From Escherichia coli (GTDB lineage Bacteria; Pseudomonadota; Gammaproteobacteria; Enterobacterales; Enterobacteriaceae): a DNA stretch of 64,000 nt. The notes beneath the pieces were generated by a model that saw only the letters and a list, made by a program, of their open reading frames with translations, ran no database searches and had not been told where the DNA came from. The position numbers and the translations under genes were made by a program. Location: assembly GCF_050920415.1 (NCBI RefSeq), contig NZ_CP169309.1; one strand, written 5' to 3'. Below are positions 1,568 through 45,126 of the stretch, piece after piece. The stretch's first letter is position 1. Every line of letters starts with the position of its first letter.

Positions 1568-3478
1568 GTGACGGACGATTTTGCACCAGATGGTCAGCTG
1601 GCGAAAGCAATACCAGGCTTTAAGCCGCGAGAACCACAGCGACAGATGGCGGTAGCCGTCACCCAGGCGATAGAAAAAAGCCAGCCGCTGGTGGTGGAAG
1701 CCGGAACCGGTACGGGCAAAACCTACGCTTACCTGGCCCCTGCGCTGCGGGCGAAAAAGAAAGTCATTATCTCGACCGGCTCAAAAGCGTTGCAGGATCA
1801 GCTCTACAGCCGCGATTTGCCAACGGTCTCAAAGGCGTTGAAATACACGGGCAACGTGGCGTTGCTGAAAGGGCGCTCAAACTATCTCTGCCTCGAACGA
1901 CTGGAACAGCAGGCGCTGGCGGGCGGCGATTTGCCGGTACAAATCTTAAGCGATGTGATCCTGCTGCGCTCCTGGTCCAATCAGACGGTAGATGGCGATA
2001 TCAGCACCTGCGTCAGCGTGGCGGAAGATTCGCAGGCGTGGCCGTTGGTCACCAGCACCAACGACAACTGTCTTGGCAGCGATTGCCCGATGTATAAAGA
2101 TTGCTTTGTGGTTAAAGCACGCAAAAAAGCGATGGACGCCGATGTGGTGGTGGTAAACCATCATCTGTTTCTGGCGGATATGGTGGTGAAAGAGAGTGGA
2201 TTTGGCGAACTGATCCCGGAAGCTGACGTGATGATCTTCGACGAAGCCCACCAACTGCCTGACATTGCCAGCCAGTATTTTGGTCAGTCATTCTCCAGTC
2301 GACAACTGCTCGACCTGGCAAAAGACATCACCATCGCCTACCGCACCGAATTAAAAGACACCCAGCAGTTACAAAAGTGCGCCGACCGCCTTGCCCAGAG
2401 CGCGCAGGATTTTCGCCTTCAATTAGGTGAGCCAGGTTATCGTGGCAACCTGCGCGAACTGTTAGCTAATCCGCAAATTCAGCGAGCATTTTTACTGCTC
2501 GATGACACCCTGGAACTTTGTTATGACGTGGCGAAACTGTCGCTGGGGCGTTCCGCCTTGCTGGATGCGGCATTTGAGCGCGCCACGTTGTATCGTACGC
2601 GGCTGAAACGGCTAAAAGAGATCAATCAGCCGGGCTACAGCTACTGGTACGAATGCACTTCGCGCCATTTTACTCTGGCACTCACGCCGCTCAGCGTGGC
2701 GGATAAATTCAAAGAATTAATGGCGCTAAAACCAGGTAGCTGGATCTTTACCTCAGCAACGCTGTCGGTGAATGACGATCTGCATCATTTTACCTCGCGG
2801 CTTGGCATTGAACAGGCAGAGTCGTTGCTGTTACCCAGCCCGTTTGATTACAGCCGCCAGGCGTTACTCTGTGTGCCGCGCAACCTGCCGCAAACCAATC
2901 AACCGGGCTCCGCACGGCAACTGGCGGCAATGTTGCGACCGATCATCGAAGCTAACAACGGTCGTTGTTTTATGCTTTGTACCTCGCACGCCATGATGCG
3001 CGATCTGGCCGAGCAGTTCCGCGCTACCATGACGCTTCCCGTTTTGTTGCAGGGGGAAACCAGCAAAGGGCAACTGTTGCAGCAATTTGTCAGCGCCGGT
3101 AACGCGCTGCTTGTGGCAACCAGCAGCTTCTGGGAAGGGGTGGATGTGCGTGGCGATACATTGTCATTGGTGATTATCGACAAGTTGCCGTTTACCTCAC
3201 CGGATGATCCACTATTAAAAGCGCGCATGGAAGATTGCCGTTTGCGCGGAGGCGACCCGTTCGATGAAGTACAGCTGCCGGATGCGGTCATTACTCTCAA
3301 GCAGGGGGTAGGGCGACTGATTCGCGACGCCGACGATCGAGGGGTTTTGGTGATTTGCGACAATCGGCTGGTGATGCGCCCTTACGGCGCGACGTTTCTC
3401 GCCAGTCTGCCGCCAGCGCCGCGCACCCGTGACATTGCCCGTGCGGTTCGTTTCCTTGCGATACCATCCTCCAGGTAA
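1568..3478 (+). CDS. yoaA: DinG-family ATP-dependent DNA helicase YoaA (636 aa), GTG start
   Basis: ORF track; Walker A AGTGTGKT, DEAH box FDEAHQL, Cys cluster typical of Fe-S helicases. Confidence 0.9.
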   Translation: MTDDFAPDGQLAKAIPGFKPREPQRQMAVAVTQAIEKSQPLVVEAGTGTGKTYAYLAPALRAKKKVIISTGSKALQDQLYSRDLPTVSKALKYTGNVALLKGRSNYLCLERLEQQALAGGDLPVQILSDVILLRSWSNQTVDGDISTCVSVAEDSQAWPLVTSTNDNCLGSDCPMYKDCFVVKARKKAMDADVVVVNHHLFLADMVVKESGFGELIPEADVMIFDEAHQLPDIASQYFGQSFSSRQLLDLAKDITIAYRTELKDTQQLQKCADRLAQSAQDFRLQLGEPGYRGNLRELLANPQIQRAFLLLDDTLELCYDVAKLSLGRSALLDAAFERATLYRTRLKRLKEINQPGYSYWYECTSRHFTLALTPLSVADKFKELMALKPGSWIFTSATLSVNDDLHHFTSRLGIEQAESLLLPSPFDYSRQALLCVPRNLPQTNQPGSARQLAAMLRPIIEANNGRCFMLCTSHAMMRDLAEQFRATMTLPVLLQGETSKGQLLQQFVSAGNALLVATSSFWEGVDVRGDTLSLVIIDKLPFTSPDDPLLKARMEDCRLRGGDPFDEVQLPDAVITLKQGVGRLIRDADDRGVLVICDNRLVMRPYGATFLASLPPAPRTRDIARAVRFLAIPSSR

Positions 3479-3535
3479 TTTGTGATGGAGTATGGTATGA
3501 TGCGCGCCTTTTTATTGATCTAAGCACGAAGACCC

Positions 3536-28552: not shown

Positions 28553-29299
28553 GTGACCAAACTCAAACTTCTGGCACTTGGAGTGCTTATCGCAACGTCT
28601 GCAGGCGTAGCGCACGCTGAAGGTAAATTTTCCCTGGGCGCAGGCGTAGGTGTCGTTGAACACCCATATAAAGATTACGATACCGATGTTTACCCAGTAC
28701 CGGTAATCAACTATGAAGGCGATAACTTCTGGTTCCGTGGCTTAGGTGGTGGTTACTACCTGTGGAATGACGCAACGGATAAACTTTCAATTACCGCTTA
28801 CTGGTCGCCGCTTTACTTCAAAGCTAAAGACAGTGGCGATCACCAAATGCGTCACCTGGATGACCGTAAGAGCACCATGATGGCTGGTCTGTCTTATGCT
28901 CACTTTACCCAGTACGGTTACCTGCGTACCACCCTGGCTGGCGATACCCTGGATAACAGCAACGGCATCGTCTGGGATATGGCCTGGTTGTATCGTTACA
29001 CCAACGGTGGCCTGACCGTGACTCCGGGTATTGGTGTGCAGTGGAACAGCGAAAACCAGAACGAATACTATTATGGCGTATCGCGCAAAGAGTCTGCGCG
29101 CAGCGGTCTGCGTGGCTATAACCCGAACGACAGCTGGAGCCCTTACCTGGAGCTAAGTGCCAGCTACAACTTCCTCGGTGACTGGAGTGTTTACGGTACC
29201 GCGCGCTACACCCGTCTGTCTGATGAAGTTACTGACAGCCCAATGGTGGATAAATCCTGGACTGGCCTGATTTCTACCGGGATCACCTACAAATTCTGA
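28553..29299 (+). CDS. mipA: MltA-interacting outer-membrane protein MipA, GTG start
   Basis: ORF track 248 aa; signal peptide, beta-barrel-like sequence ending in aromatic residue. Confidence 0.9.
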   Translation: MTKLKLLALGVLIATSAGVAHAEGKFSLGAGVGVVEHPYKDYDTDVYPVPVINYEGDNFWFRGLGGGYYLWNDATDKLSITAYWSPLYFKAKDSGDHQMRHLDDRKSTMMAGLSYAHFTQYGYLRTTLAGDTLDNSNGIVWDMAWLYRYTNGGLTVTPGIGVQWNSENQNEYYYGVSRKESARSGLRGYNPNDSWSPYLELSASYNFLGDWSVYGTARYTRLSDEVTDSPMVDKSWTGLISTGITYKF

Positions 29300-33326: not shown

Positions 33327-33626
33327 GTGGTTTGTCCCCTTTTTGCCGCGGTTATAAAGGGGATAGCCAACAATAACCCCACGACTCATCTCAATTATCT
33401 CGCCCCGACCTGGCTAAGTCCCAGCCCGGTCTCTTGCAGTCGCGTTCACGCCTGAATGACTTCTCCTGAACTTAAGTCTCAGACCTATTTGGCCGGTAAT
33501 CCCTCTCAAATTTGCTCATTTTGCGTTCCACCTTCCATCACCCTGTAACAGACCCAGCCATTTTCTGCGTAATTGTGATCTGAGTTGTAAAACGCAGATC
33601 ATTATCTGTGTTTTAAAGATTTAATG

Positions 33627-33658
33627 TTGACCTCAAAAATCATGTGGGTAAGTATGAT
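33627..33658 (+). promoter_or_regulatory. Candidate sigma70 promoter for ydjL operon (TTGACC, about 17-nt spacer, AAGTAT/TATGAT)
   Basis: -35-like TTGACC at 33627-33632 and -10-like hexamers at 33650-33658; 40 nt upstream of ydjL ATG with GAGGA SD. Confidence 0.4.
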
Positions 33659-33695
33659 GGCCATCTAAGCAAAACAAAACACAGAGGATGACGCA

Positions 33696-34772
33696 ATGAA
33701 AGCACTGGCTCGGTTTGGCAAAGCCTTTGGCGGCTACAAGATGATCGATGTCCCACAACCCATTTGTGGCCCGGAAGATGTGGTGATTGAAATTAAAGCT
33801 GCGGCAATCTGCGGCGCAGACATGAAGCACTACAATGTCGATAGCGGTTCTGATGAGTTTAACTCTATCCGCGGCCATGAGTTCGCAGGTTGTATTGCGC
33901 AGGTTGGTGAAAAAGTCAAAGACTGGAAAGTGGGGCAACGCGTCGTGTCGGATAACAGCGGTCACGTTTGCGGCGTTTGTCCGGCCTGTGAACAAGGTGA
34001 TTTTCTGTGTTGTACAGAAAAAGTAAACCTTGGTCTGGATAACAATACGTGGGGCGGTGGTTTTTCCAAATATTGTCTGGTTCCTGGTGAAATTCTCAAA
34101 ATTCATCGTCATGCGTTGTGGGAAATCCCTGATGGTGTTGATTATGAGGACGCAGCCGTACTTGACCCTATCTGCAATGCCTACAAATCCATCGCGCAGC
34201 AATCGAAATTCCTCCCTGGTCAGGATGTAGTCGTCATCGGCACTGGCCCACTCGGGCTGTTCTCCGTACAAATGGCGCGGATTATGGGGGCGGTAAATAT
34301 CGTCGTCGTTGGTCTACAAGAAGATGTGGCGGTCCGCTTCCCGGTTGCAAAAGAACTGGGTGCGACGGCTGTAGTAAATGGTTCTACCGAAGATGTGGTG
34401 GCGCGCTGCCAGCAAATTTGTGGTAAAGACAATCTGGGACTGGTGATTGAATGCTCCGGTGCCAATATCGCACTTAAACAAGCCATCGAAATGCTCCGTC
34501 CGAACGGGGAAGTGGTACGCGTTGGAATGGGCTTCAAGCCTCTTGATTTCTCGATTAATGACATTACCGCCTGGAACAAAAGAATCATTGGGCATATGGC
34601 CTATGACTCCACCTCATGGCGTAACGCTCTCCGGCTATTAGCCAGCGGCGCTATCAAAGTCAAACCGATGATCACGCATCGTATCGGCCTGTCGCAATGG
34701 CGCGAAGGGTTTGATGCGATGGTCGATAAAACCGCAATCAAAGTGATCATGACTTACGACTTTGATGAATAA
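33696..34772 (+). CDS. ydjL: Zn-dependent medium-chain dehydrogenase YdjL
   Basis: ORF track 358 aa; GHEFAGCI zinc motif, GxGxxG. Confidence 0.85.
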   Translation: MKALARFGKAFGGYKMIDVPQPICGPEDVVIEIKAAAICGADMKHYNVDSGSDEFNSIRGHEFAGCIAQVGEKVKDWKVGQRVVSDNSGHVCGVCPACEQGDFLCCTEKVNLGLDNNTWGGGFSKYCLVPGEILKIHRHALWEIPDGVDYEDAAVLDPICNAYKSIAQQSKFLPGQDVVVIGTGPLGLFSVQMARIMGAVNIVVVGLQEDVAVRFPVAKELGATAVVNGSTEDVVARCQQICGKDNLGLVIECSGANIALKQAIEMLRPNGEVVRVGMGFKPLDFSINDITAWNKRIIGHMAYDSTSWRNALRLLASGAIKVKPMITHRIGLSQWREGFDAMVDKTAIKVIMTYDFDE

Positions 34773-34798
34773 CTACTCTCCTGAAGGAACGTTATCGC

Positions 34799-36178
34799 AT
34801 GGAACAGATAACAAAACCGCATTGTGGTGCACGGCTGGATCGCTTACCGGATTGCCGCTGGCATTCGTCAATGTTTGCTATCGTCGCGTTTGGCTTGCTT
34901 GTCTGCTGGAGTAATGCCGTTGGTGGCTTGATCCTCGCGCAGCTGAAAGAGTTGGGCTGGACAGATAATTCCACCACTGCCACATTCTCAGCAATCACGA
35001 CCGCCGGGATGTTTCTCGGTGCGCTGGTTGGCGGCATCATCGGTGACAAAACCGGTCGCAGAAATGCGTTCATCCTCTATGAGGCCATTCATATTGCCTC
35101 GATGGTTGTCGGTGCTTTTTCACCGAATATGGATTTCCTTATTGCCTGCCGTTTTGTGATGGGCGTTGGGCTGGGAGCTTTACTGGTGACGCTGTTTGCT
35201 GGTTTCACCGAATATATGCCCGGTAGAAATCGCGGAACATGGTCCAGTCGGGTTTCCTTTATTGGCAACTGGTCATATCCGCTCTGTTCATTGATTGCGA
35301 TGGGACTCACGCCGCTGATTAGTGCAGAGTGGAACTGGCGAGTACAACTGCTTATCCCTGCAATATTGTCGCTTATCGCTACGGCGCTGGCCTGGCGCTA
35401 CTTTCCTGAATCCCCGCGCTGGCTGGAATCGCGCGGACGGTATCAGGAAGCCGAGAAAGTCATGCGGAGTATAGAAGAAGACGTCATACGCCAGACGGGT
35501 AAACCTTTGCCGCCCGTGGTTATTGCTGATGACGGTAAAGCGCCACAAGCGGTGCCGTATTCAGCCTTACTGACAGGAGTATTACTGAACCGCGTGATAT
35601 TAGGTTCTTGTGTGCTGATTGCCATGAACGTTGTGCAGTACACACTAATTAACTGGTTGCCAACGATATTCATGACCCAGGGGATTAATTTAAAAGACTC
35701 GATTGTTTTAAATACCATGAGTATGTTTGGCGCGCCATTTGGTATTTTTATTGCCATGCTGGTGATGGATAAAATTCCGCGTAAAACAATGGGTGTGGGG
35801 CTATTAATCCTGATTGCGGTGCTCGGATATATCTATTCACTGCAAACCAGTATGTTGCTCATAACGCTGATTGGTTTCTTCCTGATTACTTTCGTCTATA
35901 TGTACGTTTGCTATGCCTCGGCAGTGTATGTCCCTGAGATCTGGCCGACAGAGGCCAAATTACGTGGCTCCGGTCTGGCGAATGCAGTAGGGCGAATCAG
36001 TGGTATTGCCGCACCTTATGCCGTTGCAGTGCTGCTCAGTAGTTATGGCGTAACGGGAGTCTTTATTCTTCTGGGGGCGGTTTCAATTATTGTCGCAATT
36101 GCTATCGCCACCATTGGAATTGAAACCAAAGGTGTCTCCGTTGAAAGTTTAAGTATTGATGCAGTAGTCAATAAATAA
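34799..36178 (+). CDS. ydjK: MFS sugar/metabolite transporter YdjK
   Basis: ORF track 459 aa; 12-TM MFS. Confidence 0.85.
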   Translation: MEQITKPHCGARLDRLPDCRWHSSMFAIVAFGLLVCWSNAVGGLILAQLKELGWTDNSTTATFSAITTAGMFLGALVGGIIGDKTGRRNAFILYEAIHIASMVVGAFSPNMDFLIACRFVMGVGLGALLVTLFAGFTEYMPGRNRGTWSSRVSFIGNWSYPLCSLIAMGLTPLISAEWNWRVQLLIPAILSLIATALAWRYFPESPRWLESRGRYQEAEKVMRSIEEDVIRQTGKPLPPVVIADDGKAPQAVPYSALLTGVLLNRVILGSCVLIAMNVVQYTLINWLPTIFMTQGINLKDSIVLNTMSMFGAPFGIFIAMLVMDKIPRKTMGVGLLILIAVLGYIYSLQTSMLLITLIGFFLITFVYMYVCYASAVYVPEIWPTEAKLRGSGLANAVGRISGIAAPYAVAVLLSSYGVTGVFILLGAVSIIVAIAIATIGIETKGVSVESLSIDAVVNK

Positions 36179-36194
36179 TACTGGTGGATTCAAA

Positions 36195-37238
36195 ATGAAA
36201 AATTCAAAAGCAATATTGCAGGTGCCGGGCACAATGAAAATTATTTCAGCAGAAATACCTGTGCCTAAAGAAGATGAAGTTTTGATTAAAGTAGAATATG
36301 TCGGTATTTGTGGTTCAGATGTACATGGTTTTGAATCAGGCCCGTTTATTCCGCCTAAAGACCCAAATCAAGAAATTGGCCTGGGTCATGAATGCGCCGG
36401 GACGGTTGTGGCTGTGGGAAGCCGTGTGCGCAAATTTAAAGCGGGGGATCGGGTAAATATCGAACCTGGCGTTCCTTGCGGTCACTGTCGTTACTGTCTG
36501 GAAGGCAAATATAACATCTGTCCGGACGTTGATTTTATGGCGACACAACCCAACTACCGCGGCGCATTAACGCACTATCTGTGTCATCCGGAGAGCTTTA
36601 CTTACAAACTGCCCGACAATATGGACACGATGGAAGGGGCGCTGGTGGAGCCTGCTGCAGTCGGTATGCATGCCGCGATGCTGGCAGATGTTAAACCGGG
36701 TAAGAAGATAATTATTCTGGGAGCGGGTTGTATTGGTTTGATGACGTTGCAAGCATGCAAATGCCTGGGAGCTACGGATATTGCCGTCGTTGATGTACTG
36801 GAAAAACGTCTGACAATGGCGGAACAGCTCGGCGCGACAGTGGTTATTAACGGCGCAAAAGAAGACACTATTGCACGTTGTCAGCAATTTACCGAAGAAA
36901 TGGGCGCAGATATTGTTTTCGAAACAGCGGGTTCTGCGGTCACCGTTAAACAGGCACCTTATCTGGTAATGCGCGGCGGTAAAATTATGATTGTTGGTAC
37001 TGTACCGGGCGATTCGGCAATCAATTTCCTCAAAATCAATCGCGAAGTCACTATCCAGACAGTATTCCGCTATGCCAATCGTTATCCGGTCACGATTGAA
37101 GCTATTTCCTCAGGGCGATTCGATGTGAAATCGATGGTGACACATATTTACGATTATCAGGATGTACAACAGGCATTTGAAGAGTCGGTTAACAACAAAC
37201 GCGACATTATTAAAGGCGTTATTAAAATTAGCGATTAA
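36195..37238 (+). CDS. ydjJ: Zn-dependent medium-chain dehydrogenase YdjJ
   Basis: ORF track 347 aa; GHECAGTV zinc motif. Confidence 0.85.
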   Translation: MKNSKAILQVPGTMKIISAEIPVPKEDEVLIKVEYVGICGSDVHGFESGPFIPPKDPNQEIGLGHECAGTVVAVGSRVRKFKAGDRVNIEPGVPCGHCRYCLEGKYNICPDVDFMATQPNYRGALTHYLCHPESFTYKLPDNMDTMEGALVEPAAVGMHAAMLADVKPGKKIIILGAGCIGLMTLQACKCLGATDIAVVDVLEKRLTMAEQLGATVVINGAKEDTIARCQQFTEEMGADIVFETAGSAVTVKQAPYLVMRGGKIMIVGTVPGDSAINFLKINREVTIQTVFRYANRYPVTIEAISSGRFDVKSMVTHIYDYQDVQQAFEESVNNKRDIIKGVIKISD

Positions 37239-37258
37239 TTAATACGGGAGAACAGAAT

Positions 37259-38095
37259 ATGCTCGCAGATATCAGATATTGGGAAAACGATGCCACAAAT
37301 AAACATTATGCAATTGCCCATTTTAATGTATGGAATGCAGAAATGTTGATGGGCGTTATCGACGCAGCCGAAGAAGCGAAATCACCGGTTATTATTTCTT
37401 TTGGTACAGGTTTTGTCGGGAACACCTCATTTGAAGATTTCTCTCACATGATGGTATCAATGGCAAAAAAAGCAACGGTGCCGGTAATAACTCATTGGGA
37501 TCATGGTCGGAGTATGGAAATTATTCATAACGCCTGGACTCATGGTATGAATTCATTAATGCGTGATGCTTCCGCATTTGATTTCGAAGAAAATATTCGT
37601 TTAACCAAAGAGGCTGTTGATTTCTTCCATCCGCTGGGTATTCCGGTAGAGGCAGAATTAGGGCATGTCGGTAATGAAACCGTTTATGAAGAAGCGCTGG
37701 CGGGCTATCACTATACCGATCCTGACCAGGCGGCTGAATTTGTTGAACGTACGGGCTGTGACTCATTGGCTGTCGCCATCGGCAACCAGCATGGGGTTTA
37801 TACGTCAGAGCCACAATTGAACTTTGAGGTCGTCAAACGCGTACGCGATGCCGTTTCTGTTCCGCTGGTTTTGCACGGCGCATCGGGGATCAGTGATGCC
37901 GACATTAAAACTGCAATTTCGTTGGGTATCGCGAAAATCAACATTCATACGGAGCTCTGTCAGGCCGCAATGGTAGCAGTGAAAGAAAACCAGGATCAGC
38001 CTTTCCTGCATTTAGAACGTGAAGTACGTAAAGCTGTAAAAGAACGGGCATTGGAAAAAATTAAACTGTTCGGTTCTGATGGCAAAGCGGAATAA
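37259..38095 (+). CDS. ydjI: Class II (metal-dependent) aldolase YdjI
   Basis: ORF track 278 aa; FBA/tagatose-bisphosphate aldolase class II-like. Confidence 0.85.
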   Translation: MLADIRYWENDATNKHYAIAHFNVWNAEMLMGVIDAAEEAKSPVIISFGTGFVGNTSFEDFSHMMVSMAKKATVPVITHWDHGRSMEIIHNAWTHGMNSLMRDASAFDFEENIRLTKEAVDFFHPLGIPVEAELGHVGNETVYEEALAGYHYTDPDQAAEFVERTGCDSLAVAIGNQHGVYTSEPQLNFEVVKRVRDAVSVPLVLHGASGISDADIKTAISLGIAKINIHTELCQAAMVAVKENQDQPFLHLEREVRKAVKERALEKIKLFGSDGKAE

Positions 38096-38099
38096 TGAT

Positions 38100-39047
38100 A
38101 TGGATAATCTCGACGTTATTTGTATAGGTGCCGCTATTGTTGATATTCCATTGCAACCGGTCAGTAAAAATATCTTTGATGTGGATTCTTATCCTCTTGA
38201 AAGAATCGCAATGACCACCGGGGGTGATGCAATAAATGAAGCAACAATTATTTCTCGCCTGGGCCATCGCACAGCATTAATGAGTCGTATTGGTAAAGAT
38301 GCCGCCGGGCAATTTATTCTCGACCATTGTCGCAAAGAGAATATTGATATTCAAAGCCTGAAGCAGGACGTCAGCATAGATACCTCTATTAACGTTGGAC
38401 TGGTGACGGAGGATGGCGAGCGGACGTTTGTCACAAACCGTAACGGCAGTCTGTGGAAATTGAATATTGACGATGTTGATTTTTCGCGGTTTTCTCAGGC
38501 GAAATTATTATCTCTGGCCAGTATTTTCAACAGTCCTCTATTGGATGGTAAAGCGCTAACAGAAATTTTTACGCAAGCTAAAGCCCGGCAGATGATTATC
38601 TGTGCCGATATGATCAAACCGCGGTTGAATGAAACGCTGGATGATATTTGCGAAGCATTGAGTTATGTCGATTATCTGTTTCCTAATTTTGCCGAGGCAA
38701 AATTACTCACTGGGAAAGAGACACTGGATGAAATTGCTGACTGCTTTCTTGCGTGCGGCGTAAAAACGGTGGTGATTAAAACGGGTAAAGACGGCTGCTT
38801 TATCAAGCGTGGTGACATGACGATGAAGGTGCCGGCGGTCGCAGGAATAACCGCCATCGACACTATTGGCGCAGGCGATAACTTTGCTTCTGGCTTTATA
38901 GCGGCTCTGTTAGAAGACAAAAATCTGCGTGAATGCGCACGCTTTGCCAATGCAACGGCGGCTATCTCGGTTCTAAGCGTCGGTGCCACCACCGGTGTAA
39001 AAAACAGAAAGCTGGTCGAACAATTGCTGGAAGAATACGAAGGATAA
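38100..39047 (+). CDS. ydjH: PfkB-family sugar kinase YdjH (about 315 aa)
   Basis: ORF track 38079..39047; GAGD motif (DTIGAGDNFASG); start trimmed to MDNLDVICIG. Confidence 0.85.
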   Translation: MDNLDVICIGAAIVDIPLQPVSKNIFDVDSYPLERIAMTTGGDAINEATIISRLGHRTALMSRIGKDAAGQFILDHCRKENIDIQSLKQDVSIDTSINVGLVTEDGERTFVTNRNGSLWKLNIDDVDFSRFSQAKLLSLASIFNSPLLDGKALTEIFTQAKARQMIICADMIKPRLNETLDDICEALSYVDYLFPNFAEAKLLTGKETLDEIADCFLACGVKTVVIKTGKDGCFIKRGDMTMKVPAVAGITAIDTIGAGDNFASGFIAALLEDKNLRECARFANATAAISVLSVGATTGVKNRKLVEQLLEEYEG

Positions 39048-39056
39048 TGAAGGCAA

Positions 39057-40037
39057 ATGAAAAAGATACCTTTAGGCACAACGGATATAACGCTTTCGCG
39101 AATGGGGTTGGGGACATGGGCCATTGGCGGCGGTCCTGCATGGAATGGCGATCTCGATCGGCAAATATGTATTGATACGATTCTTGAAGCCCATCGTTGC
39201 GGCATTAACCTGATTGATACTGCGCCAGGATATAACTTTGGCAATAGTGAGGTTATCGTCGGTCAGGCGTTAAAAAAACTGCCCCGTGAACAGGTTGTAG
39301 TAGAAACCAAATGCGGCATTGTCTGGGAACGAAAAGGGAGTTTATTCAACAAAGTTGGCGATCGGCAGTTGTATAAAAACCTTTCCCCGGAATCTATCCG
39401 CGAAGAGGTAGAAGCCAGCTTGCAACGTCTGGGTATTGATTACATCGATATCTACATGACGCACTGGCAGTCGGTGCCGCCATTTTTTACGCCGATAGCT
39501 GAAACTGTCGCAGTGCTCAATGAGTTAAAGGCCGAAGGGAAAATTCGCGCTATAGGCGCTGCTAACGTCGATGCTGACCATATCCGCGAGTATCTGCAAT
39601 ATGGTGAACTGGATATTATTCAGGCGAAATACAGTATCCTCGACCGGGCAATGGAAAGCGAACTGCTGCCGCTATGTCGTGATAATGGCATTGTGTTACA
39701 GGTTTATTCCCCGCTAGAGCAGGGATTGTTGACCGGTACCATCACTCGTGATTATGTTCCGGGCGGCGCTCGGGCAAATAAAGTCTGGTTCCAGCGTGAA
39801 AACATGCTGAAAGTGATTGATATGCTTGAACAGTGGCAGCCACTCTGTGCTCGTTATCAGTGCACAATTCCCACTCTGGCACTGGCGTGGATATTAAAAC
39901 AGAGTGATTTAATCTCCATTCTTAGTGGGGCTACTGCGCCGGAACAGGTACGTGAAAATGTCGCGGCACTGAATATCAACTTATCGGATGCAGACGCAAC
40001 ATTGATGAGGGAAATGGCAGAGGCTCTGGAGCGTTAA
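39057..40037 (+). CDS. ydjG: Aldo-keto reductase YdjG
   Basis: ORF track 326 aa. Confidence 0.85.
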   Translation: MKKIPLGTTDITLSRMGLGTWAIGGGPAWNGDLDRQICIDTILEAHRCGINLIDTAPGYNFGNSEVIVGQALKKLPREQVVVETKCGIVWERKGSLFNKVGDRQLYKNLSPESIREEVEASLQRLGIDYIDIYMTHWQSVPPFFTPIAETVAVLNELKAEGKIRAIGAANVDADHIREYLQYGELDIIQAKYSILDRAMESELLPLCRDNGIVLQVYSPLEQGLLTGTITRDYVPGGARANKVWFQRENMLKVIDMLEQWQPLCARYQCTIPTLALAWILKQSDLISILSGATAPEQVRENVAALNINLSDADATLMREMAEALER

Positions 40038-40173
40038 ATACTCAACACGATTCACCTCTGTTTCTGTGAAAACTGTGATGAAAATCTGTGATTCAAACAG
40101 GTTATTTTGAAAGTAAACATCGGTTATGCGATAATCGCGCTAATGTGATGTAAAAAGATACAGGGGTGTAATC

Positions 40174-40932
40174 GTGGCGGCAAAAGACAGGATTCAGGCA
40201 ATTAAGCAAATGGTTGCCAACGATAAAAAGGTGACAGTCTCAAATTTGAGTGGGATTTTTCAGGTAACCGAAGAAACCATTCGCCGCGATCTTGAGAAGC
40301 TGGAAGATGAAGGCTTTTTGACCAGAACCTATGGTGGTGCTGTTTTAAATACAGCGATGTTGACGGAGAATATCCATTTTTATAAGCGCGCTTCATCGTT
40401 TTATGAAGAGAAGCAGCTTATTGCACGCAAGGCACTACCCTTTATCGACAATAAAACCACTATGGCAGCCGATTCCAGTAGTACCGTTATGGAATTGCTC
40501 AAATTGTTGCAGGACCGTAGTGACCTGACGTTGCTAACTAACTCGGCGGAAGCGATTCATGTTCTGGCTCAATCAGAAATTAAAGTCGTTTCAACGGGGG
40601 GGGAACTAAACAAAAATACACTTTCCCTGCAAGGAAGAATTACTAAAGAGATCATCAGCCGCTACCATGTCGATATCATGGTAATGAGTTGTAAAGGTCT
40701 TGATATTAACAGCGGCGCGCTGGACTCTAACGAAGCGGAAGCTGAAATCAAAAAGACAATGATCCGTCAGGCGACAGAAGTTGCGTTATTGGTTGATCAC
40801 TCTAAGTTTGATCGCAAAGCTTTTGTCCAGTTAGCTGACTTTAGTCATATTAATTACATAATAACTGATAAATCACCGGGTGCAGAGTGGATAGCATTTT
40901 GCAAAGACAATAATATCCAGCTGGTGTGGTAA
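40174..40932 (+). CDS. ydjF: DeoR-family transcriptional regulator YdjF, GTG start
   Basis: ORF track 252 aa; N-terminal HTH, DeoR C-terminal sugar-phosphate-binding domain. Confidence 0.85.
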   Translation: MAAKDRIQAIKQMVANDKKVTVSNLSGIFQVTEETIRRDLEKLEDEGFLTRTYGGAVLNTAMLTENIHFYKRASSFYEEKQLIARKALPFIDNKTTMAADSSSTVMELLKLLQDRSDLTLLTNSAEAIHVLAQSEIKVVSTGGELNKNTLSLQGRITKEIISRYHVDIMVMSCKGLDINSGALDSNEAEAEIKKTMIRQATEVALLVDHSKFDRKAFVQLADFSHINYIITDKSPGAEWIAFCKDNNIQLVW

Positions 40933-41049
40933 TTTAAGCACACGTTGTCAATATTATTTGTTCCTGCGCCTGGAAAATAAAATGATGATAAAGATGCGGC
41001 AAGTGAATTTGCCGCAATTGCTACCTTTTTAGCAAATCCGAGGCACCTA

Positions 41050-42408
41050 ATGGAACAATATGATCAAATTGGCGCAAGACTGGACCGCTTGCCTTTGGCC
41101 CGGTTTCATTATCGTATATTTGGTATTATAAGCTTTAGTCTGTTATTAACGGGTTTTTTGAGTTATTCAGGCAATGTTGTTTTAGCAAAGCTGGTAAGCA
41201 ATGGATGGTCAAATAATTTCCTCAATGCCGCCTTTACCTCGGCATTAATGTTTGGTTATTTCATCGGCTCTCTTACCGGTGGGTTCATCGGTGATTATTT
41301 TGGGCGGCGCAGGGCTTTTCGCATAAATCTTCTCATCGTCGGTATTGCGGCAACAGGGGCCGCTTTTGTCCCTGATATGTACTGGCTCATTTTCTTTCGC
41401 TTCCTGATGGGCACAGGAATGGGGGCGCTGATTATGGTTGGCTATGCTTCGTTTACGGAGTTTATCCCCGCGACGGTGCGTGGAAAATGGTCCGCGCGGC
41501 TGTCATTTGTCGGTAACTGGTCGCCCATGCTGTCTGCGGCGATAGGCGTGGTGGTTATCGCTTTTTTTAGTTGGCGGATAATGTTTCTGCTGGGTGGTAT
41601 TGGCATACTGTTAGCCTGGTTTCTCTCAGGTAAATACTTTATTGAGTCGCCTCGATGGTTGGCGGGGAAAGGACAAATCGCAGGTGCAGAAAGCCAACTT
41701 CGTGAAGTAGAGCAGCAAATTGAAAGAGAGAAGAGTGTTCGTTTACCCCCGCTTACTTTGAATCAGAGCAACAGCAAGGCTAACGTAATCAATGGTACTT
41801 TCTGGCTGCTGTTTAAAGGGGAAATGTTACGACGTACATTAGTTGCGATTACTGTTTTAATTGCAATGAACATTTCACTTTATACCATCACCGTATGGAT
41901 ACCGACCATATTTGTTAACTCCGGTATTGATGTTGATAAATCAATATTAATGACTGCTGTTATTATGATTGGCGCTCCGGTAGGTATATTTATTGCGGCA
42001 TTAATTATTGATCATTTTCCTCGTCGATTATTTGGCTCCGCCTTGCTTATTATTATTGCCATGTTAGGCTATATCTATTCAATTCAGACTACAGAGTGGG
42101 CGATTTTAATCTATGGCCTGGTGATGATCTTCTTTTTATACATGTATGTTTGCTTCGCGTCGGCGGTTTATATCCCGGAGCTTTGGCCAACGCATTTACG
42201 CCTGCGCGGTTCGGGTTTCGTTAATGCCGTCGGACGGATCGTCGCGGTCTTCACGCCTTATGGCGTTGCGGCACTATTAACGCATTATGGGTCAATCACG
42301 GTGTTTATGGTGCTTGGCGTGATGTTAGTGCTCTGTGCGCTGGTTCTCTCCATTTTTGGCATCGAAACGCGGAAGGTGTCGCTGGAAGAGATTTCTGAGG
42401 TGAATTAA
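41050..42408 (+). CDS. ydjE: MFS transporter YdjE
   Basis: ORF track 452 aa; paralogous to ydjK. Confidence 0.85.
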   Translation: MEQYDQIGARLDRLPLARFHYRIFGIISFSLLLTGFLSYSGNVVLAKLVSNGWSNNFLNAAFTSALMFGYFIGSLTGGFIGDYFGRRRAFRINLLIVGIAATGAAFVPDMYWLIFFRFLMGTGMGALIMVGYASFTEFIPATVRGKWSARLSFVGNWSPMLSAAIGVVVIAFFSWRIMFLLGGIGILLAWFLSGKYFIESPRWLAGKGQIAGAESQLREVEQQIEREKSVRLPPLTLNQSNSKANVINGTFWLLFKGEMLRRTLVAITVLIAMNISLYTITVWIPTIFVNSGIDVDKSILMTAVIMIGAPVGIFIAALIIDHFPRRLFGSALLIIIAMLGYIYSIQTTEWAILIYGLVMIFFLYMYVCFASAVYIPELWPTHLRLRGSGFVNAVGRIVAVFTPYGVAALLTHYGSITVFMVLGVMLVLCALVLSIFGIETRKVSLEEISEVN

Positions 42409-42430
42409 ATCTTTCGTTGATGGCGTCAAT

Positions 42431-42496
42431 TGCCAGATGTACCACTGACGTGTTTTATCTGGCCTACAATGGCAGTACAGAATTGTAGGCCAGCAT
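42431..42496. repeat. REP-type palindromic element(s) between ydjE and pncA
   Basis: TGCCAGATG...TTATCTGGCCTAC followed by inverted ATTGTAGGCCAGCAT; resembles E. coli REP consensus ending CTTATCNGGCCTAC. Confidence 0.55.
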
Positions 42497-42500
42497 AAAA

Positions 42501-43142
42501 TTACTCCTGCGTCTCTTCCCAGTCTGCCAGCGTATATAGCGTTGCCCCAGCTGCTGACATCTCCATAAACGCGTGCGCACTGTCCTGTGGCTGGATATTC
42601 ACGCCACGACAACCATCGGTAATCACATTAACCTTATAACCTAACTGTAACGCGTCCAGCACGGTAAACTTCACGCAATAGTCAGTAGCCAGGCCCATAA
42701 TGATCAATTCATCGATTTCATGATCGCGTAACCAGTCATCGAGCGTGGTTTTCTGCCGACGGCCGTTATCAAAAAAGGCACTGTAACTGTCAACTAAAGG
42801 ATTTTCGCCTTTATGGAACACCGCTGCGATCGCTTTTTGGTTCAGTAACGGATGTAATTGTGCGCCTTCACTGTTCTGCACACAGTGATCTGGCCAGAAG
42901 GTTTGTGGCAAACCGTCGAGTTGGCCTGGCGTATAAGGCTCTACACCGTGCTGACTGGCAAAACTGCCGTGATTCGCCGGGTGCCAGTCTTGACTGGCGA
43001 TAACCGCTTCACCGCGCGACTGGCACCAGTCAATCAGGCGGTTAGCGACATCCACCGTACTGTCACCTTCCGGCACGGCGAGCGCGCCACCAGCACAGAA
43101 ATCATTTTGTAAATCGACCAGTAACAGGGCGCGAGGGGGCAT
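42501..43142 (-). CDS. pncA: Nicotinamidase/pyrazinamidase PncA (about 213 aa)
   Basis: ORF track 42501..43160; isochorismatase-fold; start trimmed to MPPRALLLVD. Confidence 0.9.
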   Translation of the reverse strand: MPPRALLLVDLQNDFCAGGALAVPEGDSTVDVANRLIDWCQSRGEAVIASQDWHPANHGSFASQHGVEPYTPGQLDGLPQTFWPDHCVQNSEGAQLHPLLNQKAIAAVFHKGENPLVDSYSAFFDNGRRQKTTLDDWLRDHEIDELIIMGLATDYCVKFTVLDALQLGYKVNVITDGCRGVNIQPQDSAHAFMEMSAAGATLYTLADWEETQE

Positions 43143-44300: not shown

Positions 44301-45023
44301 TTAATCCTGCAACGCATAGGTTACGGTGGTGACTACGCGTACCGTTTTATTAATCGCCGTAGGATCATCTTCATCACTGCCACTGGCGAAGATCTGGAAC
44401 ACGCCTTGTGAGGCATCGCTAATTGACCCCACCTGGCTACCTGAGTCCGTTGCAAATTGTAATGCTGCGTTGCGTGCATCTTTGGTGGCGGCGGCAATCA
44501 TCTCAGCGCGCAGTGCGCCAATACCATTAAAGCGATAGGCGACTTTGCTCTCAGCGATAGCGCCCTCCGTAGCGACTTGCAGTTCGTTTAATTTCGCGAC
44601 GACTTTTTCGACAGCAGCAACATTATGGGTTTTTATCGTCACTGACCCGTCTGCGTTATAGCGTGGCATTGTGGGATCATCTTTCAGATAAAAGGAATCA
44701 GTTCGCTTGCTTGTCCATTGGCCCAGGGTTATCTCTTTCTCGTTAATCCCCTGAGCATTGAGTTCGGCAACAATTTTTTTCTGCGCGTCTTCCAGTTTCG
44801 GGAACAGTTCGCCGGGTATATTACCCTTAAAGTTAATCGCAATTGTTAATTCTGCCGTATCTGCGCGAACTTCTTTTTCAGAAAGCCCACGCACATTTAC
44901 ATAACGGTTATTGGTTTTTAAATGTTTAACACCATCGCCAACAAAATAACCACAGGCGCTAATCCCCAGTCCGAGGACGATAGCGGCAATTAAAGAGGGG
45001 GCCTTATTCACTGATGACTCCAT
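44301..45023 (-). CDS. Hypothetical exported or membrane-anchored protein, SIMPL/DUF541-like (about 239 aa; ORF extends to 45113)
   Basis: ORF track 44301..45113 (-); N-terminal hydrophobic segment APSLIAAIVLGLGISACGYFV; resemblance to SIMPL proteins (BP26/YggE type) is by eye only; a gene here is not expected from K-12 order. Confidence 0.55.
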   Translation of the reverse strand: MESSVNKAPSLIAAIVLGLGISACGYFVGDGVKHLKTNNRYVNVRGLSEKEVRADTAELTIAINFKGNIPGELFPKLEDAQKKIVAELNAQGINEKEITLGQWTSKRTDSFYLKDDPTMPRYNADGSVTIKTHNVAAVEKVVAKLNELQVATEGAIAESKVAYRFNGIGALRAEMIAAATKDARNAALQFATDSGSQVGSISDASQGVFQIFASGSDEDDPTAINKTVRVVTTVTYALQD

Positions 45024-45126
45024 ATCAGATGCTAAATGAGCAAGGGAATGTAGTGGAGAGAGGGAGTGAAAGACAGTCCGATTCAGGAGTGTGGCCGACA
45101 GCATATCGGCCACATTTTTGCAGGAT

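Follow-up and report, generated by a model that had tools for sequence, protein, structure and literature searches.

The window analysed here, a 64,000-nt stretch of an Escherichia coli genome, carries on its plus strand the complete ydjLKJIHGFE cluster (33696-42408), eight co-directional open reading frames that have no internal stops and retain the lengths known from K-12. In order these are ydjL (33696-34772, 358 aa), ydjK (34799-36178, 459 aa), ydjJ (36195-37238, 347 aa), ydjI (37259-38095, 278 aa), ydjH (38100-39047, 315 aa), ydjG (39057-40037, 326 aa), ydjF (40174-40932, 252 aa, with a GTG start) and ydjE (41050-42408, 452 aa). A mechanical list of reading frames takes an in-frame ATG farther upstream (38079) as the start of ydjH; the start used by RefSeq, by K-12 and in the crystallised protein is 38100. 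The preliminary description of this region had placed the cluster at exactly these coordinates. It had also called the genes tightly packed, which is true from ydjL to ydjG (successive gaps of 26, 16, 20, 4 and 9 nt) but not for ydjF and ydjE, which are set off by 136 and 117 nt and probably form transcription units of their own. The operon of the literature is ydjLKJIHG rather than all eight genes, a point absent from that description.

Ten kilobases of the region are 100% identical to E. coli MFDS1022581, whose annotation reads ydjLKJIHGFE, flanked by msrB-yeaC and pncA-ansA. The K-12 cluster (b1776-b1769) is the same system in its genes, their order and lengths, all eight start codons and the slot between yeaC and pncA. 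The differences are allelic only: nucleotide identity is 97.9%, individual genes differ by 1.4-2.1% except ydjE (4.2%, double the divergence of the others), and each protein carries 1-10 amino-acid changes. With a dN/dS against K-12 of 0.06 overall and 0.02-0.08 across the eight genes, the cluster is complete and is evolving under purifying selection. Our own analysis bears on gene content, integrity, protein families, conservation, the promoter footprint and motif enrichment; the in-vitro kinase and aldolase activities, methylglyoxal reduction by YdjG, activation of ydjL in the gut, the listing under CRP and Rho-dependent attenuation were demonstrated by others.

Enzymes and transporters of the cluster

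The families named in the preliminary description (two Zn-dehydrogenases, two MFS transporters, a class II aldolase, a PfkB kinase, an aldo-keto reductase and a DeoR regulator) were borne out for all eight genes by Pfam, NCBIfam and catalytic-residue checks. YdjL is a Zn-dependent medium-chain dehydrogenase (PF08240, PF00107) in which, among 79 orthologues, C39, H61 and E62 never vary and 175 of 358 positions are at least 97% conserved. Among NCBIfam models and PDB entries L-threonine 3-dehydrogenases come closest to it, but at 216.6 bits it falls far below that equivalog's cut-off of 380. YdjJ is a sorbitol-dehydrogenase-like, Zn-dependent polyol dehydrogenase that matches PDB 5VM2 at 771 bits and, after that entry, ketose reductase 1E3J and the human sorbitol (227 bits), L-arabinitol 4- and xylitol dehydrogenases. 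Judged from sequence, its closest characterised relatives are polyol 2-dehydrogenases; C39, H65, E66, E152 and D200 are invariant among orthologues. The third oxidoreductase, YdjG, is an NADH-dependent aldo-keto reductase (NF049922 equivalog, 628 bits; cut-off 550) with an invariant tetrad of D54, Y59, K85 and H136. Its sole demonstrated activity, cited in PMC6561318, is the NADH-linked reduction of methylglyoxal in vitro.

YdjH is a PfkB-family ketose 1-kinase (PF00294; PDB 3H49/3IN1 at 682 bits) with conserved G41-G42-D43 and D254...D260 (DTIGAGD), and YdjI a class II (Zn) DHAP-dependent aldolase (TIGR00167, 325 bits; cut-off 215.6) with invariant D81, H82, H178 and H206 that matches the PDB entry "YdjI aldolase" (6OFU) at 624 bits. 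The K-12 RefSeq products are L-glycero-L-galacto-octuluronate kinase for YdjH and L-glycero-L-galacto-octuluronate-1-phosphate aldolase for YdjI, names that reportedly derive from in-vitro work of 2019 by Raushel. Published summaries of the work describe phosphorylation by YdjH, and cleavage by YdjI, of 2-keto sugars that have a long chain and end in a carboxylate, the YdjI reaction being octuluronate-1-phosphate <-> DHAP + L-arabinuronate; they call the functions of the ydj operon "only partially determined" (PMC9602453, PMC11194214). As summarised in PMC9602453, the kinetics are best for chains of 7-9 carbons that end in a carboxylate, and L-glycero-L-galacto-octuluronate, which is not known to occur in nature, is the best in-vitro substrate. 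These assignments and the solved structures of YdjI (6OFU), YdjH (3H49/3IN1) and YdjJ (5VM2) had escaped the preliminary description.

YdjK and YdjE are MFS paralogues (43.5% identity), both matching PF07690 and PF00083. YdjK is presumed to be the importer; it reached the cut-off of no NCBIfam subfamily model, and its gene occurs in 58 of 80 species-level loci. Linkage of ydjE to the cluster is confined to Enterobacteriaceae (22 loci); that ydjE does not belong to the module outside this family had been overlooked previously. Untargeted metabolomics ties YdjE to the export of acetophenone and 3-phenyllactate (PMC10971958), a role in aromatic acid export that is at odds with sugar import.

Control regions

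A predicted ydjL promoter occupies 33627-33655 of the plus strand (-35 TTGACC, 33627-33632; 17-nt spacer; -10 AAGTAT, 33650-33655) and is followed by the ribosome-binding site GAGGA (33684-33688). Across the upstream regions of 14 Enterobacterales GTTGAC does not vary and the -10 keeps the form nAnnAT, which is weak enough that a simple consensus scan missed the promoter. Ending 8 nt before the -35 is a 15-bp pseudo-palindrome, TCTGTGTTTTAAAGA (33605-33619; consensus TCTKTR-N3-YAMAGA). In 37 of 78 loci this motif occurs in the 250 nt before ydjL, against a background of 0.014 per 250 nt, the enrichment having been counted in the same loci from which the motif was derived; 43 of its 85 matches within 1.5 Mb lie in these ydjL-upstream stretches. 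The loci that bear it belong to the Enterobacterales, Lachnospiraceae, other Clostridia and Atopobiaceae. Conserved across phyla, the palindrome is a candidate operator for YdjF, a DeoR/GlpR-family regulator (PF08220 HTH_DeoR, PF00455 DeoRC) whose gene adjoins the enzyme genes in 67 of 80 loci.

Farther upstream, an element at 33574-33601 (plus strand) combines a TGTGATC half-site (33574-33580) with the inverted repeat TGATCTG (33576-33582)/CAGATCA (33595-33601). The 14 Enterobacterales show little or no variation in it, and sequence still farther upstream cannot be aligned. The element may serve as a secondary operator or as a class-I CRP site, which would be centred near -81; with three mismatches to the CRP consensus it scores no better than background and is not significant by sequence alone. 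Published lists place ydjLKJIHG among CRP-activated operons (PMC8085971) and ydjF among the CRP targets of genomic SELEX (PMC3105977), and Rho-dependent attenuation within ydjL has been reported. The cluster is silent in laboratory culture, and a ydjL promoter fragment turns on reproducibly in the mouse gut (PMC6561318).

Between ydjG and ydjF, the plus-strand interval 40065-40135 holds three direct TGTGA repeats (at 40065, 40074 and 40087) and the top promoter-like site of the region in our promoter scan (40107-40135; TTGAAA-17-GATAAT with an extended TG, 10/12 matches), and is a putative control region. A terminator-like hairpin, GCGGCAA-N6-TTGCCGC (40995-41016), separates ydjF from ydjE; its fold is not significant (z = -1.9), and as a terminator it would be weak at best. 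A perfect, REP-like hairpin at 42452-42501 lies between the convergent ydjE and pncA. Its fold of -32 kcal/mol (z = -3.6) was equalled by none of 200 shuffles, it gives a weak, sub-threshold match to Rfam naRNA4 (REP-derived), and it is kept in genomes without the ydj cluster. It probably terminates transcription in both directions and marks the right-hand edge of an accessory segment.

Pathway logic and the nature of the substrate

The order L-(K)-J-I-H-G-F is kept in 80 species-level loci, which represent at least five phyla or classes. The core L-J-I-H-G(-F) recurs in Clostridia, Negativicutes, Atopobiaceae, Synergistaceae and Gilliamella, with YdjI identities of 74-87%.

The logic of the route proposed below resembles that of other pathways. 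The animal polyol pathway and fructolysis employ aldose reductase AKR1B1, sorbitol dehydrogenase, ketohexokinase and aldolase B, and all four classes have a counterpart in ydj in the same logical sequence: an aldo-keto reductase, a Zn polyol 2-dehydrogenase, a kinase of the ribokinase/PfkB fold that acts on C1 of a 2-ketose, and an aldolase that yields DHAP and an aldehyde. It differs in its second dehydrogenase, its C7-C9 carboxylate-ended in-vitro substrates, its clustering with transporters and a DeoR regulator, and its metal-dependent class II aldolase where the animal enzyme is class I. In the sulfoquinovose (sulfo-EMP) yih system of E. coli, a PfkB kinase phosphorylates a charged ketose at C1, DHAP and a charged aldehyde are released, and a dedicated reductase acts on the latter. 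The ydj cluster resembles it in this charged-end logic, in its DeoR-family regulator, in transporters of the cation-symporter type and in its relevance to the gut, whereas yih starts with a glycosidase and has an isomerase and a class I aldolase; ydj has neither glycosidase nor isomerase and carries an aldo-keto reductase and two Zn-dehydrogenases instead. The Agrobacterium D-altritol/galactitol pathway likewise has two Zn-dependent medium-chain polyol dehydrogenases that channel different polyols into one ketose for a PfkB tagatose kinase, together with an aldolase-family enzyme; it uses an ABC sugar transporter and ends by epimerisation to fructose-6-phosphate, unlike the DHAP cleavage of ydj. 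YdjI itself shares the PF01116 fold and family with the tagatose-bisphosphate aldolases GatY (galactitol) and KbaY (AgaY; N-acetylgalactosamine) and with class II fructose-bisphosphate (FBP) aldolases (170-185 bits to 1GVF, 8Q57 and 3Q94), including the Asp-His and two further His metal ligands. Nonetheless, it scores below all GatY/KbaY/FBP-type equivalog cut-offs (225.9 against 443.55 bits for the tagatose-bisphosphate model), ydj has no GatZ/KbaZ partner and no PTS, and the YdjI substrate is the monophosphate of a longer sugar acid.

We propose that YdjK, and possibly YdjE, would import an anionic long-chain polyhydroxy acid, probably C7-C9, or its aldose or polyol precursor. YdjG would reduce an aldehyde, and YdjJ and YdjL would oxidise the secondary alcohol beside a terminal CH2OH, giving a 2-ketose with a carboxylate end. 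YdjH would phosphorylate its C1 hydroxyl, YdjI would split the resulting ketose-1-phosphate, releasing DHAP and an acid-aldehyde with three carbons fewer, and one of the ydj oxidoreductases would then reduce or oxidise this aldehyde. Transcription of ydjLKJIHG would start at 33627-33655, from a weak promoter that depends on an activator; YdjF is its probable repressor, acting through 33605-33619 until a phosphorylated intermediate releases the regulator, and ydjF and ydjE are probably driven by promoters of their own. The order and substrates of the oxidoreductases, the transported species and the operator and effector of YdjF are what we infer. The scheme envisaged in the preliminary description, in which a sugar or sugar acid undergoes import, redox steps, phosphorylation and aldol cleavage, agrees with what is published on YdjH and YdjI (PMC9602453, PMC11194214).

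It is unlikely that the cluster serves an ordinary C6 polyol or ketose of the sorbitol, galactitol, allitol or tagatose type, and that the long-chain acids are favoured in vitro through promiscuity. The likeness of YdjJ to sorbitol, ketose, xylitol and arabinitol dehydrogenases, the membership of YdjI in the tagatose/fructose-bisphosphate aldolase family, the Pfam sugar-transporter matches of YdjK and YdjE and an AlsE-like epimerase added in Firmicute loci (257 bits to the D-allulose-6-phosphate 3-epimerase model; cut-off 271) would all suit such a route. However, no hexitol or hexose enzyme equivalog cut-off in NCBIfam was reached, the cluster contains no PTS genes, and the published kinetics point to longer, carboxylate-ended chains. 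Moreover, the transporters linked in other phyla are of dicarboxylate and amino-acid types, not sugar PTS or CUT1/CUT2: a Na+:dicarboxylate-symporter-family (DAACS) gene in 27 loci, variable in position and sometimes inside the operon, and a Liv-type ABC system with Peripla_BP_6 binding proteins in about 12. They provide an independent fit to an anionic substrate.

These same transporters, the threonine dehydrogenases nearest to YdjL, and the aminotransferase, 5-oxoprolinase-like and RraA-like aldolase genes that adjoin the cluster in 6-7 loci might instead suggest a nitrogen-containing substrate, such as a polyhydroxy amino acid or a sugar-amino-acid conjugate. We consider this quite improbable: YdjL lies far under the threonine dehydrogenase cut-off, the aminotransferase/LysR block varies in orientation and position and may be an unrelated neighbour, the E. 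coli cluster has none of these genes, and the in-vitro substrates (PMC9602453) require no nitrogen.

Variation within E. coli could be taken to mean that the cluster is a cryptic, decaying remnant. Junction alignment with strain 2013C-3252, in which yeaC and pncA are 160 nt apart, defines a 9.1-kb presence/absence segment (33362-42436) that cluster-less genomes replace with about 50 nt of unrelated sequence. The ydjI-ydjH pair is present in 4,306 of 5,426 complete genomes (79%); the absence of the cluster from the remaining ~21%, together with several lineages, O157:H7 strains among them, whose copy has IS insertions or is partly deleted, indicates that it is dispensable. Laboratory silence, Rho attenuation and substitutions in this lineage at positions near-invariant among orthologues (YdjL S296R, YdjH G273D, YdjK K264N) would also accord with decay. 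Yet the eight genes are intact with low dN/dS, the promoter and candidate operator are conserved, the promoter is reproducibly active in the mouse gut, and YdjG is reported, in work cited in PMC6561318, to reach higher levels in the cecum of germ-free mice. A loss of present function is thus very unlikely.

An idea raised by the authors of PMC6561318, and in keeping with the RefSeq name of YdjG, is that the unit detoxifies reactive aldehydes such as methylglyoxal. The activity of YdjG and its equivalog match to NADH-dependent methylglyoxal reductase notwithstanding, we give this idea scarcely any credence, for it leaves a kinase, a DHAP aldolase, two polyol-type dehydrogenases, transporters and a regulator of the sugar-phosphate type, kept in order across phyla, unexplained, and aldo-keto reductases commonly reduce methylglyoxal promiscuously.

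In agreement with the preliminary description, a search of the full-text literature to mid-2026, with subscription journals partly covered, found no physiological substrate with genetic proof, and no growth substrate or mutant phenotype is known to link the cluster to any compound. The cluster in this genome is ordinary and already known biology. The reading that we favour, with a probability of about 75%, is that ydj is an inducible catabolic route, with the steps and regulation proposed above, which would deliver carbon to glycolysis as DHAP.

Enzyme families and published biochemistry

The ydj cluster occupies 33696-42408 on the plus strand of the window and comprises, in order, ydjL, ydjK, ydjJ, ydjI, ydjH, ydjG, ydjF and ydjE, flanked in the annotated record by msrB-yeaC and by the convergent pncA-ansA. 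A preliminary description, made from the sequence alone, had proposed these limits together with a set of protein families and a carbohydrate-acid catabolic role. The limits agree exactly with the list of open reading frames, and Pfam and NCBIfam bear out the families for all eight proteins. The sole difference from that list concerns ydjH, whose longest open reading frame starts at 38079, as against 38100 in RefSeq, in E. coli K-12 MG1655 (hereafter K-12) and in the crystallised protein.

YdjI scores 325 bits with TIGR00167 (cut-off 215.6) and 298.9 bits with PF01116, and is thus a class II, metal-dependent, ketose-bisphosphate aldolase. Its metal ligands, an Asp-His pair and two further histidines (D81, H82, H178 and H206), are at least 97% conserved among 80 orthologues, and the ligand histidines presumably correspond to AgaY His83/180/208. 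It falls below the equivalog models for tagatose-/fructose-1,6-bisphosphate aldolases (TIGR01858, 225.9 versus 443.55; TIGR01859, 246.8 versus 343.05) and below the GatY subfamily model (240.1, cut-off 383). YdjH is a PfkB carbohydrate kinase (PF00294, 246 bits) with the motifs TTGGD (G41, G42, D43) and DTIGAGD (D254-D260), of which D43, D254 and D260 are invariant. Both proteins are 99.4-99.6% identical in sequence to their characterised K-12 counterparts, and structures have been solved for YdjI (6OFU), YdjH (3H49, 3IN1) and YdjJ (5VM2).

The K-12 RefSeq product names are L-glycero-L-galacto-octuluronate kinase for YdjH and the matching 1-phosphate aldolase for YdjI. In the 2019 work of Huddleston and Raushel, YdjH is said to phosphorylate 2-ketoses at C1, which agrees with the "1-phosphate" of the RefSeq name. 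As that work by Huddleston, Raushel and colleagues has been summarised, the two enzymes favour long-chain monosaccharides with a carboxylate end, L-glycero-L-galacto-octuluronate being the best YdjI aldolase substrate, albeit one without known natural abundance, and the functions of the operon are "only partially determined" (PMC9602453). The YdjI reaction joins DHAP and L-arabinuronate (PMC11194214). The pathway interpretation of the preliminary description therefore holds, as known biology, and matches the published in-vitro kinase and aldolase work. Its view that the physiological substrate was still to be found also stands: we looked for a published substrate with genetic proof in the searchable full-text literature to mid-2026, and came upon none.

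The remaining proteins are less closely defined by their models. YdjJ and YdjL both carry ADH_N and ADH_zinc_N domains (PF08240, PF00107) and are Zn-dependent medium-chain dehydrogenases whose Zn ligands (YdjJ C39, H65, E66 and E152; YdjL C39, H61 and E62) are invariant in about 80 orthologues. Their best-scoring named family, L-threonine 3-dehydrogenase, was rejected (NF003808, 216.6 for YdjL and 204.7 for YdjJ, cut-off 380). YdjG is an aldo-keto reductase that passes the NF049922 equivalog (628.4, cut-off 550), and its catalytic tetrad of D54, Y59, K85 and H136 is invariant in 78 orthologues. YdjF, a DeoR/GlpR regulator, has an N-terminal HTH_DeoR domain (PF08220, 62.6 bits) and a C-terminal DeoRC sensor (PF00455, 167.8 bits). 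The transporters YdjK and YdjE, 43.5% identical to each other, belong to the general MFS and Sugar_tr families only; among MFS subfamily and equivalog models their best match was the aromatic-acid:H+ symporter (148.8 and 155.9, cut-off 418.55). Untargeted metabolomics has tied YdjE to the export of acetophenone and 3-phenyllactate (PMC10971958). Among the ydj enzymes YdjG alone reached a named-function cut-off, those for threonine dehydrogenase, tagatose-/fructose-bisphosphate aldolase, ribokinase and hexitol dehydrogenase all being missed, and judged by sequence only the others remain orphans.

An ordinary hexitol pathway would find some kinship in YdjJ, whose closest characterised relatives are polyol 2-dehydrogenases (ketose reductase and sorbitol, arabinitol and xylitol dehydrogenases). 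The PTS-dependent form of such a pathway (gat/srl type) was rejected: no PTS gene is present from yeaC to pncA, and the galactitol-1-phosphate 5-dehydrogenase model gave 165.9 against 550. We regard a hexitol substrate as unlikely.

The module beyond the Enterobacteriaceae

A scan for YdjI in 100,044 species genomes returned 148 relatives, of which the best 80 loci were analysed. Within these, YdjI identity is 74-87% in Lachnospiraceae and other Clostridia, 79-83% in Veillonella and Megamonas, 78-81% in Atopobiaceae, 82% in Synergistaceae, 77% in Anaerococcus, 78-82% in Erysipelotrichaceae and 74% in Gilliamella. When all eight proteins were searched by tblastn in the same best 80 of 148 loci, the gene order L-(K)-J-I-H-G-F was found nearly everywhere. 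Identity to E. coli ranks I > L > J > H > G > K and F; in one Lachnospiraceae locus, for example, the values for I, L, J, H, G, K and F are 86, 82, 79, 68, 62, 54 and 51%. Linkage of ydjE was confined, among the loci examined, to Enterobacteriaceae; the core module is L-J-I-H-G-F, and ydjE is an enterobacterial add-on. A recent horizontal transfer was ruled out: even when E. coli is compared with Citrobacter, ydjI has reached saturation at its synonymous sites (pS 0.7-1.0); the spread is thus not recent, and the 74-87% identity across phyla reflects strong constraint. The sole grounds for suggesting horizontal transfer as such are the patchy distribution and the conserved gene order and operator.

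Clustering of the open reading frames of 58 non-enterobacterial loci, followed by Pfam and NCBIfam annotation, revealed several added genes. In 29 loci ydjL and ydjK are separated by a member of the ribulose-phosphate-3-epimerase family; it is AlsE-like, with 257 bits to the D-allulose-6-phosphate 3-epimerase model (cut-off 271). A transporter of the sodium:dicarboxylate-symporter family is present in 27 loci. Its usual place is after ydjF, but Erysipelotrichaceae have it between ydjG and ydjF, and one Synergistaceae genome has it between ydjL and ydjJ; these varied positions argue for a functional linkage. About 12 loci, most of them without ydjK, encode a Liv-type ABC system whose binding protein is of the Peripla_BP_6 type (as in L048, L053 and L080). 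In 4-5 loci three further genes come after this system: an FGGY kinase gene scoring best to rhamnulokinase, an Aldolase_II gene scoring best to fuculose-phosphate aldolase and ribulose-5-phosphate epimerase, and a gene for a xylose-isomerase-like TIM barrel, none of which reaches a cut-off. Example coordinates of added genes, in the ydj-related loci L026-L084 from other genomes, are L039 6479-7174, L044 10731-12095 (a symporter-family carrier), L060 17182-19307 and L056 19417-20304. A tetronate or an L-xylulose pathway was considered for the downstream trio and rejected, as the scores are below cut-off; no assignment was made. Speculatively, the second kinase/aldolase set, seen in few loci, would fit a long sugar being shortened step by step, one DHAP unit at a time.

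The characterised members of the dicarboxylate-symporter family, by their NCBIfam matches, are carriers of dicarboxylates and amino acids, and Liv-type ABC systems transport small acids, amino acids among them, a range broader than the Pfam family names suggest. The two transporter types lend independent support to an anionic substrate, in agreement with the published carboxylate preference, and the ydj substrate is probably anionic. The amino-acid carriers among these families would also suit a nitrogen-containing substrate, a reading that we hold to be improbable given the carboxylate-ended monosaccharides favoured by the kinase and the aldolase.

Promoter, candidate operator and transcription units

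When the 200 nt upstream of ydjL were aligned from 14 Enterobacterales, conservation was confined to the last ~130 nt. The footprint contains a TGTGATC half-site with a TGATCTG/CAGATCA inverted repeat (33574-33601), conserved in the 14 genomes; a conserved 15-bp pseudo-palindrome, TCTGTGTTTTAAAGA (TCTKTR-N3-YAMAGA, 33605-33619), which adjoins the -35 box; a promoter with an invariant -35 (TTGACC, 33627-33632), a 17-nt spacer and a weak -10 (AAGTAT, 33650-33655); and a conserved ribosome-binding site (GAGGA) upstream of ydjL. A simple consensus scan missed the promoter that footprinting recovered, as expected if it is activator-dependent. This promoter is off in culture and on in the mouse gut (PMC6561318). 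The operon ydjLKJIHG is listed among those activated by CRP (PMC8085971), and ydjF is a CRP SELEX target (PMC3105977). Upstream of ydjL and of ydjF, the CRP consensus gave only 3-mismatch matches, of which the window has 188, no better than chance; CRP control is thus supported by the literature and not by the sequence. In a rho mutant a ydjL 5'UTR+ORF fusion is up >2-fold (bioRxiv 2020.07.18.207399), and the leader being only ~35 nt, this effect probably lies within the ydjL reading frame.

In Lachnospiraceae, other Clostridia and Atopobiaceae, too, the palindrome, as TCTTTGAAACAAAGA and variants, stands beside the -35 of the ydjL promoter. In 37 of 78 loci it falls within the 250 nt that precede ydjL, where 0.014 would be expected per 250 nt, and half of its 85 matches in 1.5 Mb fall in those upstream stretches, the motif having been derived from the same sequences in which this enrichment was counted. 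Because the Firmicutes lack CRP yet keep ydjF beside the enzymes, the palindrome at 33605-33619 is most simply explained as an operator of YdjF, for which it is a likely candidate. Autoregulation of YdjF through the same palindrome is unsupported, the motif being upstream of ydjF in 1 of 67 loci.

Several further sites were observed. A second full match, TCTGTGTTGTACAGA, lies inside ydjL (34004-34018), and a half-site, AAAACACAGA (33676-33691), overlaps the ydjL ribosome-binding site; DNA looping between operators is common among DeoR-family proteins, but chance predicts about two matches per 64 kb. In Lachnospiraceae there are often two copies ~100 nt apart. Sixteen Lachnospiraceae loci (L026-L046) have in common a perfect palindrome of 16 bp, GTTTCCGGCCGGAAAC, in the leader between promoter and gene, ~60-110 nt before ydjL (for example, L039 5230-5260). 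It has no Rfam match, is followed by a possible mini-ORF (GGGAGATG...), and might serve as a second operator or form a leader hairpin. Rfam gave no above-threshold match in the ydj cluster or in six related loci.

The best promoter-like site of the region lies upstream of ydjF (40107-40135, 10/12 matches, extended -10) and is preceded by three direct TGTGA repeats. Terminator scanning and folding revealed no convincing intrinsic terminator after ydjG or ydjF, the only significant hairpin being a strong REP-like one (42452-42501, z = -3.6) between ydjE and pncA. These features point to ydjLKJIHG, ydjF and ydjE as the likely transcription units, with read-through possible.

The E. coli allele and the proposed pathway

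The window copy is an ordinary allele of the known ydj cluster, already annotated, crystallised and partly characterised. The surrounding 10 kb are 100% identical to E. coli MFDS1022581 and 95-99% identical to nearly all of 5,426 complete E. coli genomes. Gene order, lengths, start codons and flanking genes (yeaC, pncA) match K-12 b1776-b1769, and in this comparison none of the eight genes has an internal stop. The nucleotide difference is 1.4-2.1% per gene (4.2% in ydjE), with 1-10 amino-acid changes per protein and a dN/dS of 0.02-0.08 by gene and 0.06 overall. The gaps from ydjL to ydjG are 26, 16, 20, 4 and 9 nt, whereas ydjF and ydjE follow gaps of 136 and 117 nt. The G+C content of the cluster is 46.3% against 50.3% in the remaining window. 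This copy looks functional and is under purifying selection.

In the complete E. coli genomes, ydjI-ydjH are present in 4,306 of 5,426 (79%) and absent from 1,120. By phylogroup, ydjI is found in ~30% of B1 isolates and in 97-100% of A, B2, D and E (PMC9602453). The genomes without the cluster mostly have a clean swap of window 33362-42436 for ~50 nt of unrelated filler, the REP-like element being retained; in strain 2013C-3252 the yeaC-pncA spacing is thereby 160 nt (L003, the locus of this strain, 3328-3487). The same yeaC-pncA slot holds the cluster in Citrobacter, Klebsiella, Raoultella, Yokenella and other Escherichia species, so that its absence from E. coli genomes is most simply a secondary loss. 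Several lineages, including the O157:H7 strains 86-24 and F3398, have IS3-, IS5- or IS1-family insertions or partial deletions within it. Such losses, and a promoter silent in culture, might suggest a cryptic remnant; with a low dN/dS and intact genes we consider this very unlikely. Five PLSDB matches were chromosome-sized records or large non-mobilizable replicons and so give no evidence of plasmid mobility; one 221-kb non-mobilizable "plasmid" of K. pneumoniae (NZ_CP076548.1) has a full ydj-like cluster at 55349-64179, with 78% nucleotide identity.

Three non-conservative substitutions relative to K-12 affect residues that hardly vary in the orthologues: YdjL S296R (codon 34581-34583; Ser in 76 of 79 orthologues), YdjH G273D (38916-38918; Gly in 73 of 79) and YdjK K264N (35588-35590; Lys or Arg in 57 of 58). 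The gene ydjE (41050-42408) is twice as divergent as its neighbours (4.2% versus ~2% of nucleotides; dS 0.16 versus 0.07), and 7 of the 10 changes in its product fall within residues 215-248, perhaps marking a recombination tract or a central loop that is free to vary. The closest genome, NZ_CP169399.1, differs over 16 kb at only three positions (34988, 36335 and 38225), all within ydj genes: two are synonymous, and the third, in ydjK codon 64, gives Ser in the window and Ala in that record. At each of them the window agrees with K-12, so these changes are private to that record or errors there. Elsewhere, a SIMPL-domain protein gene (44301-45113, minus strand) separates ansA and sppA, which are adjacent in K-12; of the 5,426 complete E. 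coli genomes only 943 cover at least 80% of it, and it is thus a second accessory insertion near the ydj segment. The gene mipA (28553-29299, plus strand), flagged "frameshifted" by RefSeq in the closest record, is uninterrupted in the window at 248 aa, which we take to be the length of K-12 MipA; the flag may be an annotation artefact.

In the pathway that we propose, YdjK would import the substrate; YdjG and YdjJ/YdjL would convert an aldose-acid or aldonate to a keto-uronate; YdjH would phosphorylate this; YdjI would cleave the product to DHAP and a shorter acid-aldehyde, which would then be reduced or oxidised; and a phosphorylated intermediate would relieve repression by YdjF. In-vitro support, from the work of others, covers the kinase and aldolase steps, and we infer the remainder. 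The polyol-2-dehydrogenase kinship of YdjJ, the C1 kinase YdjH and the release of DHAP by YdjI together parallel the animal polyol pathway and fructolysis, which the set of aldo-keto reductase, polyol dehydrogenase, ketose-1-kinase and aldolase mirrors; ydj differs in that its substrate would have an acidic far end. Methylglyoxal is a substrate of YdjG, whose abundance is higher in the cecum (PMC6561318), but aldehyde detoxification as the role of a cluster with its own kinase and aldolase seems to us most improbable.

The boldest reading, to which we give a probability of about 0.45 and which is therefore tentative, is that ydj is a multi-phylum catabolic unit of gut and plant-associated bacteria. 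It would consist of the core L-J-I-H-G-F with its own conserved operator, swappable carboxylate/amino-acid-type transporters and, in Clostridia, an AlsE-like 3-epimerase (in some with a second isomerase-kinase-aldolase set). The nutrient served would be one new to metabolism, in all likelihood a sugar acid of C7-C9 that is broken down into DHAP units. If this is true, that nutrient could be named directly with the help of the Clostridial binding proteins and of the PydjL/YdjF switch. The comparative results already narrow the substrate question, with a probably anionic substrate, a core of L-J-I-H-G-F, ydjE as an add-on and a likely YdjF operator. A complete pathway has been kept under strong purifying selection in E. 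coli and in many gut anaerobes, with a promoter that is on in the gut. Were its substrate identified, both a catabolic pathway and a nutrient niche of the gut would be added to those known, and there would be an explanation for why presence or absence of the cluster follows phylogroup and habitat in E. coli.
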